Positions 11,518 to 14,800 of a DNA stretch of 64,000 nucleotides are shown piece by piece. How positions within the stretch are numbered: position 1 is the first letter of the stretch; the number at the start of each line of letters is the position of its first letter. The notes below the pieces were generated by a model. The model saw nothing but the letters and a program-made list of their open reading frames with translations, made no database searches and was not told the DNA's origin. The position numbers and the translations under genes are program-made. Where the stretch lies: the NCBI RefSeq assembly GCF_013122565.1, contig NZ_CP053258.1. The stretch is one strand, 5' to 3'. The DNA is from Escherichia coli (GTDB lineage: Bacteria; Pseudomonadota; Gammaproteobacteria; Enterobacterales; Enterobacteriaceae).

Positions 11518-11877
11518 TCATATATCGAAAATTTTTTTCAGAGTTGAATGTATTTCATATTTTGTGCTTTCATTAATGTTTATTGAAACTTCCTGGCTAT
11601 GGTTCCAATGAAATACCTCCGTAGACTCTGGAATGAAATATAATTTCAATATCGAACCAGAAATTAAATATTTGAGACTAGTGGTTTTTTTGCCATAAAT
11701 TTGGTCCTGAGCTTCAATATATATAATATCCGGATCTTCAAATTCATCACGAGAGATAGAAATATATCGAGGAGGATCCAAATTAACCCATAATGTTACA
11801 GCATAGAGTCCATCATCCTCAAAATCTTTATCAACCAGAACATTTAAAGCCTCCATGTCAAATCTCATCATTAACAT
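11518..11877 (-). CDS. putative immunity protein for the main Rhs deaminase-like toxin
   Basis: 119 aa AT-rich ORF overlapping the rhs stop by 7 nt. Confidence 0.55.
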
Positions 11878-14800
11878 CCTCTACTATTGTTTTTGAATCC
11901 CTTACCACCATCACGAACTTTTCTAAAATCACCGCCTTTAAAGCTATATATATTTCCTGTAACCTTTTCATGGATCGTAAGTTCGTCAAGTCCTAAGTGT
12001 TGTGCCATATTTTTTAGACTCCTTTTACAAAATCCGCAAATTTCTTTACCCTCAACAGTTAAGGTCGCTGAGCCACCACGAAGCCCTGCATCATGAGCCT
12101 GTAGCATTGCATCAATTTCAGCGTGCATATCAAATCGACTATTATTTGGACCAGACATTCCCGAAAGAGTTGGACCATCAATTCGCGGAACACGCTCGGT
12201 CGGATTAACACCAGTAAACACCTGCCCAGCCATTTCAAAAATGGCGTCAACAGTAGCTAACCCCAACGGATCGATCCAGCTAATCGGATTCGGCGCATAC
12301 CTGTAAAGATTCAGACCGCCACGGATCGAAATCGGATCCTGACTGATAAACCTCCCGCACTCCGGCGCATAATACCTGAACAGATTGTAATGCAGCCCCG
12401 TCTCTTCATCATAATACTGCCCCGGCAGCCGCAGTGGTTGCTCAAAGTACGCCCCGCTGTTGCTGATGTCGCCCCGGTTTTCGCCAAATCCCGCCTGGTA
12501 GCCCGCCCACACCAGCGTCCCGTCCGGCGCGGTCACCTCCTGTACCGTGCCCGTCAGGTCCGTGTGGTAATACCAGATTTTTTGACTCTCTCCGCGCCCC
12601 GTGATGGCTGCCACCGGCGTGTACGGCTGTTCCGCGTCGTACAGGTATGTCCGCTTCCCCTGCCACGTTGTCTCCTGTAACAGCCGGAACCCTTCCCACA
12701 CAAACGTTGTCCGCCGCTGTTCCCTCTGGTCCGTATGGCGGCCATATGTCGCCTTGCTGATACGCCTGCCCAGCGCATCGTACTGATACCGCGTCTCGCT
12801 GTTGCCGCTGATGACCCGCGTTAACTGGCCCTGCGCGTTCCACTCCAGTTGCTGGTCCCTGCGCTCTGTCAGTTCGCCCCATTCGTTATAGCGGTAGCGG
12901 TCACGCCCGTAGCCCGGCAGGCGGTTATCCGGCACCGCTCCCTGATGCTCATCCGTCAGCAGATTGCCCGCTTTGTCGTAATAATAATGGTCATGGTCGT
13001 ACATCTGACCCGTGCGACTGGTCAGCCAGCCGCTGCGGTCATAGCTGAACACCAGGCAACCGCGCAGTTTGTCATTGATGCCGCCAACTTCACCGTCTGC
13101 GTTCCAGATATAGTCCCGCGCTGTCACGCTGTCGCTGTGTGACGGGGGTGTGGCTGTCTGCTGTGGGTTCTGGCTGCCGCCTGGCAGGCTGCGCTGCCAG
13201 CTTAACCGGTTGTCGGCGTTGTAGCCGCTGAACGTCGCCAGTTTCCCCTGGGTGCGCATCACCTGACGGTGCAGACTGTCACGCTCATATTCGCTGACCG
13301 TGATACCGTCCAGCGCTGTCTGGAGCAGATGCCCGCTGCCGTAGTAAAGATGGCTGAGGTGCTGCCCGTCCGGTAACGTGATGTCGGTGGGATTGCCCAG
13401 CGCGTCACGCTGATATTTTATGCTGCCGTGCACGCTGTGCTCTGCCGTCAGCCACCCGCTGCGGTCATACGCAAAGCGCACCGTGTCCGCCTGCATGTGG
13501 TGCAGCCGTTCCCCTTCTTTCGTCGGGGTGAGCGTCACTTCCGTTATCTGGTCAAGACGGTTGTAGCTGAAGGTCCGTGTACTGTGCTGCGTGTCACTGC
13601 GCAACAGGCGGCCCAGCGCATCACGCTCCTGTCGCTCATTACGCACCCCGCCTTCTGTACCCTGCGTCTGGATGATGACCGGATACCCGCCCGCATTCAG
13701 CACAAACATCCGTATCAGACCGTCCGGGCGCTGTTCTCCCGTCAGCCGTCCGTCCGCATCGTGACTGAACCGGTAAAGCGCTCCGTTGCCGTTGCTCAGA
13801 CTGGCAATCCATCCCTCCGCGGTATAATGCCAGCGCGTCTCCCGTTTCTCTTCATCCGTATGGAGCGCCAGCAACCCGCGCGGCGTATACTGCCAGGACT
13901 GTACGCTGCCCGTGATGCGACGGTGGCTGCTCAGTAACCCCAGCGCGTTCCAGGTGTAACGGTCCTGCTGTTTACCGGGGTGGCTGACCGTCTCCGGCAG
14001 CCCCAGACGGTTATAGCTGATGCGTACCGTTTTCCCTTCCGCGTCCGTCACCGCCGTCAGGTTGCCGTCTTCATCGTATTCATAACCCGTGGCACGCCCT
14101 GAACAGTCGGTGTAACGCGTCAGTTGACCACGCGCATCGTGCGCCAGCGCAACCTCGCCGCCCCGCGCATCCGTGCGGCTGACCGCCAGCCCCTGTTCAT
14201 CATACCCGTAGCGCGTGACGCGCCCTTCCGGGTCCGTCTCCCGTATCACCTGACCGTGTTCGTTGTAATCCGCCTTCCATACGTGGTCGTCATCCAGCGC
14301 CCGGCGCGTGATTTCAGCAAAGCTGCCGTTCCACTGCGTCTGTGTCACCCGGCCTGCCGGGTCCGTCTCTTTCACCACCCGGCTCAGGGTGTCGTATTCC
14401 AGCGTTACCCTGCGTTCGCCGGGGAGTTCCACCGCTACCGGAAAATGGTTTTCGTTGTAGGTGAAGCGGTACAGTCCGCCGCCCGGCGTCCGGTGAGCAG
14501 TCACATACGTGTCTTCATCAAACCACCAATGCCACTTATGCTCCGGCCTGCCGGTTACCACCGTCTGCCCACCAGCAAAATCATAGTGGAACCGGTAATC
14601 CTCACCGTCGCTGGTTGAGTGCTCCACCACCCTGGGAAACCCCTCAATCTCTTCCCAGCGGTAGGTACAGGTAAAGCCCGTCGCGTTGCAGTGCTCTGTC
14701 ATCAGGCCATTTTCATAGGCAAACTGGCGCACCGTCACACCGGCCCCGTTCACCACGCCAGTCAGTTGCCCGTTATCGTCGTAGCGATATTCCACCAGGT

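Follow-up and report, generated by a model that had tools for sequence, protein, structure and literature searches.

The existence of Rhs proteins with deaminase tips was predicted in 2011 (PMC3239186). Bacterial deaminase toxins have given rise to editors and footprinting enzymes derived from DddA, SsdA and DddB, and with each new family came a different rule for substrate or context. In the classification of Iyer et al. 2011, the MafB19 clade is defined by an Asn at the end of strand 2, an HxE motif in helix 2, a Val at the end of strand 3, a +xxCxxC motif in helix 3 and a Gly at the start of strand 4 (PMC3239186). It belongs to the C-terminal-hairpin division, and its carriers are Rhs, hemagglutinin and MafB proteins (PMC3239186). 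An in vitro screen of 175 deaminases placed MafB19, as delimited by the Iyer profile, among the five families that held nearly all of the DNA cytosine deaminase activity (10.1101/2023.06.29.547047). Activity on single-stranded DNA (ssDNA) as well as double-stranded DNA (dsDNA) was common among the screened enzymes, the MafB19 members tended to favour CpG, and EcDa01 was one MafB19-family enzyme tested (10.1101/2023.06.29.547047). Here, we describe the C-terminal tip of the main Rhs effector encoded in a 64,000-nucleotide stretch of Escherichia coli DNA from contig NZ_CP053258.1 (hereafter, the window), which is almost certainly a deaminase-fold toxin of the Pfam family PF24241 and the MafB19 clade. 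Coordinates are positions in the window, and features lie on the minus strand unless stated otherwise.

The deaminase tip, its family and its predicted fold

The tip comprises 128 residues (aa 1252–1379, ATVDAIF...NNSRGC; 11874..12257) and directly follows the DPLGL motif at the end of the Rhs core (aa 1247–1251; 12258..12272). The HAE motif (H1296-A-E1298; 12117..12125) contains a putative zinc ligand His and a putative catalytic proton-shuttle Glu at the start of a helix formed by tip residues 46–56. The putative cysteine zinc ligands are found in C1325-G-F-C1328 (12027..12038), at the start of tip helix 75–87. An earlier reading of the same DNA (the original prediction) had quoted a 39-residue string containing these motifs at a spacing of 26 residues. 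The string is present verbatim in the tip, and exactly 26 residues separate the Glu of HAE from the first Cys of CGFC. The pattern H.E-(20–35)-C..C occurs once in the whole 1379 residues of the effector. The Rhs core has a GC content of 0.60, whereas the tip has 0.42 and the adjoining candidate immunity gene 0.32, a drop that is expected for a swapped-in toxin/immunity cassette.

The original prediction had read the end of the Rhs protein as a deaminase toxin that is likely to be delivered, and had proposed a profile search of the residues behind DPLGL against deaminase families. In agreement with it, Pfam Deam_C (PF24241, 'putative cytidine deaminase, C-terminal domain') matches tip residues 30–108 with E=1e-15. 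The tip is unmatched in NCBIfam, and a literature search for the accession 'PF24241' gave no match. Fourteen close homologues of the tip, with 64–98% identity, come from Escherichia, Salmonella, Cronobacter, Trabulsiella and Trinickia; all have PF24241, and the catalytic residues, including C74 and C77KR (tip numbering), are invariant across them. About 100 more distant members came from a search of 1.84 billion protein cluster representatives, and 53 diverse members from this wider search were used to build an alignment restricted to the tip (A2). Across these 53 members, the second C is invariant and each of H, A, E and the first C is retained in at least 90%, PF24241 is matched at E≤0.001 by 51, and a few distant members are without the His or a Cys. 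The HxE...CxxC arrangement is kept in 215 of the 236 family members fetched. Judged at the level of sequence, the HAE/CxxC motif of the tip is more than a chance occurrence. H1296, C1325 and C1328 are predicted to form a zinc site with E1298 as the proton shuttle, and the tip is very likely to be catalytically active.

The family, which the original prediction had left unassigned, can be assigned from PF24241 and from the five MafB19 signatures, all of which are found in the tip: N18 (strand 12–17), H45xE47, V68 (strand 63–69), K71-E-I-C74-G-F-C77, and G89, which lies three residues before strand 92–97. As in the C-terminal-hairpin division, strands 92–97 and 102–107 are four residues apart in the AlphaFold2 model and there is no helix 4. 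A 'MafB family polymorphic toxin' of Neisseria gonorrhoeae (P0257), which combines PF06255 with PF24241, is 37% identical to the tip over the domain (BLASTP E=4e-19) and appears to be of the same kind as gi:254805593 of Iyer et al. By a profile search with protein names, PF24241 also takes in CdiA tips of Pseudomonas aeruginosa and E. coli and many 'filamentous hemagglutinin' tips. We infer that the tip belongs to the MafB19 clade in the sense of Iyer et al., which we equate with PF24241. Its match to Pfam PF14437 (MafB19-deam) is not significant (E=0.093), and 10 of the 53 diverse relatives match that model at E≤0.001. The tip misses PF14437 because this Pfam model and Iyer's MafB19 profile are different things (10.1101/2023.06.29.547047).

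The fold was predicted with AlphaFold2 from the A2 alignment. The resulting model, with a predicted local distance difference test score (pLDDT) of 92.2 and a predicted template modelling score of 0.86, replaced a 15-sequence model of pLDDT 74. Its elements are, in order, strands 4–9 and 12–17, a 28-residue loop, the HAE helix 46–56, strand 63–69, the CxxC helix 75–87, and a hairpin of strands 92–97 and 102–107. This is the strand-strand-helix(HxE)-strand-helix(CxxC)-strand-strand order of the cytidine deaminase (CDA) superfamily core, and the residues expected for the zinc ligands and for the catalytic Glu, two residues past the first ligand, are present in the tip. The modelling and structural comparison that the original prediction had called for thus returned the deaminase order of elements, and placed the tip closer to CDA, DddB and DYW than to TadA. 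When the A2 profile was run against the PDB, T4 dCMP deaminase alone was reached (E=0.02), with HAE and CxxC aligned to its HAE and CPDC. A phmmer search of the tip against PDB sequences gave no match even at E=10, and the PDB copies searched contained no solved structure for any member of the PF24241 tip family. From the profile matches, the conservation and the model together, we regard the predicted deaminase fold and the catalytic constellation of the tip as established.

The family falls into two groups that differ in carrier, in the region before the HAE helix and in the tail. The CdiA/MafB-type group has carriers other than Rhs, a pre-helix 'PTLIADRV..K' insert and a tail of the form ...PGMKSLK. 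The Rhs-type group (32/38 Rhs-linked members), to which the tip belongs, is without this insert and has a GGK(G/x)(F/W)... tail that is Cys-ended in the enterobacterial members. In the tip itself, the insert of about 12 residues before the HAE helix is absent, and a GGKGF(x)nC tail is present that the CdiA/MafB-type members do not have.

Delivery module, candidate immunity gene and orphan cassettes

From its open reading frame (ORF) and Pfam matches, the protein that carries the tip is a class I prePAAR/PAAR/Rhs effector of 1379 residues plus stop (11871..16010; stop codon at 11871–11873). The prePAAR motif and transmembrane region occupy aa 1–53 (15852..16010; Pfam PF25799 prePAAR_I, E=6.9e-24), and the PAAR domain occupies aa 72–138 (15597..15797; Pfam PF05488, E=3.2e-15; NCBIfam T6SS_PAAR_dom, E=2e-7). 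Pfam also matches DUF6531 at aa 224–296 (E=7e-21) and several RHS_repeat and RHS models. Two genes sit upstream of the effector gene. The first encodes an EagR-type chaperone of 147 residues of the DUF1795/DcrB family (16031..16474; Pfam DcrB PF08786, E=2.7e-35); its exact sequence is named 'DcrB-related protein' at NCBI, and another member of its cluster is named 'DUF1795 domain-containing protein'. The second encodes a 737-residue VgrG spike, the carrier of the Rhs effector (16498..18711; NCBIfam TIGR03361 VI_Rhs_Vgr, E=2e-166; TIGR01646, E=3e-124). The locus therefore has every element of a class I prePAAR Rhs effector of a type VI secretion system (T6SS), namely prePAAR with transmembrane helices, PAAR, an Rhs shell, DPxGL, and an adjoining Eag chaperone and VgrG, which agrees with the delivery context claimed in the original prediction.

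Elsewhere, the window also contains core genes of T6SS-1, which have 98.8% identity to E. coli. Just upstream of vgrG, a low-GC stretch (~0.32–0.38) holds two ORFs, 18736..19122 (128 aa) and 19119..19820 (233 aa), neither of which has an NCBIfam match. An exact look-up identified the 1379-residue protein as WP_250880426.1 (E. coli), on a single 4.82-Mb contig. The protein is thus already at NCBI, where it is named merely as an Rhs protein.

The DPLGL motif is a candidate autoproteolysis site by its position. A profile of the DPLGL region aligns to the core/toxin junction motif of the solved Rhs structures 7q97, 8qjc and 8h8b and of DddA (6u08), and release of the tip by autoproteolysis after DPLGL is a reasonable reading of this alignment. 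Separately, the Rhs core ends with two DPxGL-type motifs, and the first one reads DPISIRGG (12318..12338, aa 1225–1231), the usual form being DPIGLAGG. The Asp and Pro are retained in this variant, which is also found in two orphan ORFs with different tips (4699..6315 and 7360..8820) and in a Salmonella Rhs protein with a related deaminase tip (L010).

A candidate cognate immunity protein, acidic and of no known family, is encoded directly downstream of the tip, at 11518..11871 (117 aa, with ATG at 11871) or extending to 11877 (119 aa), in which case its ORF overlaps the Rhs stop. The original prediction had named a putative 119-residue immunity gene at 11518..11877; the ORF is present, and homologues stand next to related tips in six loci. 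The protein has an isoelectric point (pI) of 4.55, compared with 7.97 for the tip, and no Pfam or NCBIfam match. Its family consists of 28 homologue clusters, none of which has a Pfam domain. Homologues are found directly 3' of homologous tips in Salmonella (L002, L003, L010), in metagenome contigs (L004, L006) and in E. coli XJ34 (L001). Immunity identity follows toxin identity, being 63–65% where the toxins are 84–90% identical and 32% where they are 66% identical. The Salmonella locus L010 has the same tip and immunity pair on a full-length Rhs protein with an unrelated core. In Ralstonia (L009), an immunity homologue is present alone, with no toxin match in a six-frame translation of the locus. 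Polymorphic toxin-immunity pairs are recognized by a small downstream gene that is conserved and co-varies with the tip, and this is the pattern observed here. The downstream protein is predicted to neutralise the tip. Its acidity would fit the DNA-mimic mode of the DddB immunity protein (PMC13346905), by analogy.

Downstream of the main Rhs gene, the window contains four orphan cassettes of an Rhs fragment, a tip and an immunity gene (2730..11312). In cassette 1, a SUKH/SMI1_KNR4 immunity gene (8976..9464) accompanies a tip ORF (9474..11312) with a match to the Tox-SHH HNH-type nuclease (E=5e-25). In cassette 2, the tip ORF at 7360..8820 has a weak GIY-YIG-like match (E=0.004) and is accompanied by a leucine-rich-repeat protein at 6489..7340. 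The tip ORF of cassette 3 (4699..6315) has no clear family, with a weak match to DUF7587 (E=0.014), and is accompanied by a 101-residue protein (4377..4682). Cassette 4 consists of a tip ORF with an LHH nuclease (3170..4297; E=3e-8) and a SUKH immunity gene (2730..3179). On the plus strand at 8618..8914, antisense to the 5' end of the second orphan Rhs fragment, lies a gene of the SymE type I toxin family (NCBIfam endoribonuclease SymE, E=2e-8). The same DNA is annotated as SymE in other E. coli genomes, and SymE genes also flank the Rhs arrays of XJ34 (L001) and Salmonella (L010).

The ends of the tips in this array deserve a separate remark. Four of the five, which are mutually unrelated in sequence, have a Cys within the last two residues: ...NNSRGC in the main tip (11874..11879), and ...FRVKGEC, ...NAIRSC and ...NRGGGCV in the others, at 7363..7368, 4702..4707 and 3173..3181. 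Among 35 unrelated Rhs tips of other organisms, which had been fetched incidentally, 13 have a Cys in the last four residues, compared with about 4% expected at a Cys frequency of 1%; it usually follows a stretch rich in Gly, Lys or Arg. We considered the terminal Cys as a by-product of overlap with the start codon of the immunity gene and rejected this, the immunity gene lying 17–20 nt past the stop in two orphan cassettes. A literature search found no paper on Cys-ended tails of Rhs tips.

Proposed mode of action and substrate

Taken as a whole, the locus probably encodes an antibacterial T6SS effector with a small zinc-dependent nucleic-acid deaminase as its warhead. The PAAR domain would load the Rhs effector onto the VgrG spike, and the EagR chaperone would shield the transmembrane helices at the N-terminus of the effector. 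The 128-residue tip would be held within the Rhs shell, cut free after DPLGL, and fired into a neighbour cell to reach the cytoplasm. There, H1296, C1325 and C1328 would bind zinc and E1298 would activate a water molecule, leading to deamination of a base. The likeliest target would be cytosine in DNA, and its conversion to uracil would arrest replication, cause uracil-driven DNA damage and leave C:G to T:A mutations. The producer would be protected by the small acidic downstream protein, which would probably cover the substrate-binding face.

The substrate is not fixed by the sequence or by the fold. Cytosine in DNA is favoured because the MafB19 family was active in the published screen, and we hold this assignment, by analogy with the family, with somewhat better than even confidence. 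Several points weigh against the scheme as drawn. The assignment to DNA cytosine, for the tip and for the whole Rhs-linked sub-clade, is carried over from a family-level published screen, and the CdiA/MafB-type members, possibly the ones assayed, have only about 35–40% identity to the tip. The equation of PF24241 with the MafB19 clade of Iyer et al. is drawn from the signatures and the Neisseria MafB member, not from a direct profile comparison. Zinc binding, cleavage after DPLGL and the immunity function are all predicted properties. In addition, the tip is near-neutral (pI 7.97) rather than strongly basic.

The tip could alternatively be an RNA deaminase toxin that edits C or A in tRNA, rRNA or mRNA and poisons translation, which we consider improbable. 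Such an activity would have precedents, as RNA activity exceeding that of APOBEC3A was reported for one or more enzymes in four of the five DNA-active toxin families (10.1101/2023.06.29.547047), and TadA and DYW likewise have an HAE motif. However, the family was scored primarily as DNA cytosine deaminases in the same screen (10.1101/2023.06.29.547047), and the tip model is without the helix 4 and the extra C-terminal helices of TadA. The additional metal site of DYW, built from two His and a C-terminal CxC (PMC3239186), is not apparent in the tip, where a single Cys follows CxxC, at the C-terminus. Furthermore, no RNA-binding module is attached to the tip.

A slightly less probable alternative is that the tip deaminates free nucleosides or nucleotides (dC, dCMP or dCTP, or C or CTP) and kills by distorting the pool, for example by dUTP flooding. 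Matches to Pfam dCMP_cyt_deam_1 in 7 of the 53 diverse members and to PF14437 in 10 of them point in this direction, PF14437 being reported to overlap phage dCMP deaminases (10.1101/2024.12.05.627091). These similarities are weak, however, and reflect the common catalytic core. CDA and dCMP deaminases are oligomeric, and their active or allosteric sites span more than one subunit; the 128-residue tip shows no elements of this kind. The conserved loop of 28 residues that links strand 2 to the HAE helix also argues against small substrates, as toxin deaminases such as DddB have their DNA-gripping insert at this position (PMC13346905), and the family was active on DNA in the screen (10.1101/2023.06.29.547047).

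That the tip is a decayed, non-catalytic remnant or a binding-only toxin with a fossil motif is very improbable: most E. coli genomes keep it only as truncated orphan ORFs of 85–100 residues, the XJ34 copy is frameshifted, and the His or a Cys is lost in a few distant members, but the tip of the window is in frame on an intact 1379-residue Rhs protein directly behind VgrG and EagR, its catalytic residues are intact and invariant in the 15 closest homologues, and the immunity gene maintained beside the tip in several genera argues for a live toxin.

Beyond the preferred assignment to DNA cytosine, we put forward a more speculative idea that we think unlikely. The Rhs-linked sub-clade may have an uncatalogued substrate or context preference (for example, context-free dsDNA, RNA or the nucleotide pool) and be blocked by a new, unannotated acidic inhibitor family, in which case the tip and its inhibitor would offer a new compact scaffold and an off-switch for base editing or footprinting. 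Separately, the Gly/Lys-rich tail with its final Cys, found on unrelated Rhs tips, may be a general delivery or tethering signal of Rhs cargo that has not yet been described.

Occurrence and comparison with described deaminase toxins

The tip DNA was found in 2 of 5426 complete E. coli genomes, as an orphan with a frameshift that is annotated as 'cytidine deaminase-like fold-containing protein'. The remaining copies in E. coli are mostly truncated ORFs of 85–100 residues, and the copy in the window is an uncommon intact, main-locus form because the others are mostly truncated or frameshifted. In most E. coli and many Salmonella genomes, the tip persists solely as truncated ORFs of 77–100 residues, some of them starting at the Met of MHAE and often adjoining an intact immunity gene; examples are found in E. 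coli XJ34 (L001, 9472..9959) and in clusters P0006, P0348, P0349 and P0014. Short 'cytidine deaminase-like' ORFs that are reported as stand-alone effectors may be decayed orphans of this type.

One such report is a 2026 paper that lists the 77-residue 'DeamC' (QS34_17685) as a candidate effector of Salmonella SPI-6, from bioinformatics only (PMC13304343). Salmonella 'DeamC' and the tip share IPR057580/PF24241 and the setting of an enterobacterial T6SS Rhs island. The 77-residue ORF is shorter than the 128-residue domain, and the short Salmonella ORFs look like truncated orphans because the 84-residue Salmonella cluster P0014 begins at the Met of MHAE. Relatives of the tip in Salmonella have 64–88% identity, and one of them is on a full-length Rhs protein. 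In E. coli, the 'Rhs-MafB19 deaminase' effectors of Ma et al. 2017, as they are cited in 10.1101/2024.03.05.583533, were described in silico downstream of vgrG and eagR. According to a review, other tip types alone have been tested experimentally. The 'MafB19' tip of E. coli MS 145-7 and Shiga toxin-producing strains is probably different from the one studied here, because the latter misses PF14437.

The signature reported in the original prediction as TadA-like stands at the level of the superfamily, but a specific likeness to TadA was rejected on topology and ranking. TadA is characterized, among other features, by the Helix-4 division, an EPClMC motif and two extra C-terminal helices (PMC3239186), all of which are absent from the tip model. 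Compared with TadA/ADAT2, the tip has a beta4-beta5 hairpin, ICGFC without the PC motif and no extra C-terminal helices, and it is not a member of that group. Membership in three further families was also rejected. Sequence-profile tests did not support DddA-like (BaDTF1, SCP1.201, PF14428) or SsdA-like (BaDTF2, bacterial DYW-like) membership, and the HTE motif, the PCxxCK motif and the helix-hairpin-helix insert of the DddB-like family (BaDTF3, Pput_2613, PF14427) were not found in the tip.

DddB of Taylorella equigenitalis, a dsDNA cytosine deaminase toxin (PDB 9k3e), is of similar size (~110–130 residues). Both DddB and the tip are located at the end of an Rhs/YD-repeat toxin (9k3e is described as a 'YD repeat protein'), have CxxCK and an insert that follows strand 2 and precedes the catalytic helix, and are encoded with a small immunity protein, a candidate one for the tip. 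However, they share 14% identity, with no sequence-profile match in either direction. The tip has HAE and no Pro before CxxC, whereas DddB has HTE. The insert of the tip is a loop in the model, whereas that of DddB is a helix-hairpin-helix pushed into the minor groove (PMC13346905). The dsDNA preference of DddB is not transferable to the tip. DddA, the T6SS dsDNA deaminase of Burkholderia cenocepacia that is used in mitochondrial base editors, shares the DPxGL junction and CGFC with the tip. DddA has a cognate immunity gene (DddA/DddI). Its tail (...PTKGGC) is Gly-rich with a terminal Cys, as in the tip, but it has HVE in place of HAE and belongs to a different family, with no Pfam or hidden Markov model relation in the deaminase part.

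With the MafB19 clade, including Neisseria MafB and the CdiA-CT proteins of Pseudomonas and E. coli, the tip shares the Pfam family, the signatures, the hairpin, and its nature as a swappable tip on Rhs, CdiA or MafB carriers. Its candidate immunity family is without annotation, in contrast to DUF6911, which adjoins an E. coli CdiA-CT member, and to the SUFU and SUKH families listed by Iyer et al. (PMC3239186). In ecological terms, the tip brings a deaminase into the set of exchangeable Rhs warheads that the T6SS-1 island of E. coli encodes. The tip is an intact, full-length, chromosomal example of a sub-clade of the MafB-type family in tractable E. coli with a probable inhibitor, which makes the question of its substrate directly testable. 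Compared with the systems described so far, it is a new member, in a sub-clade with a putative activity, of a known kind of toxin, and it leaves the current picture of these toxins unchanged.

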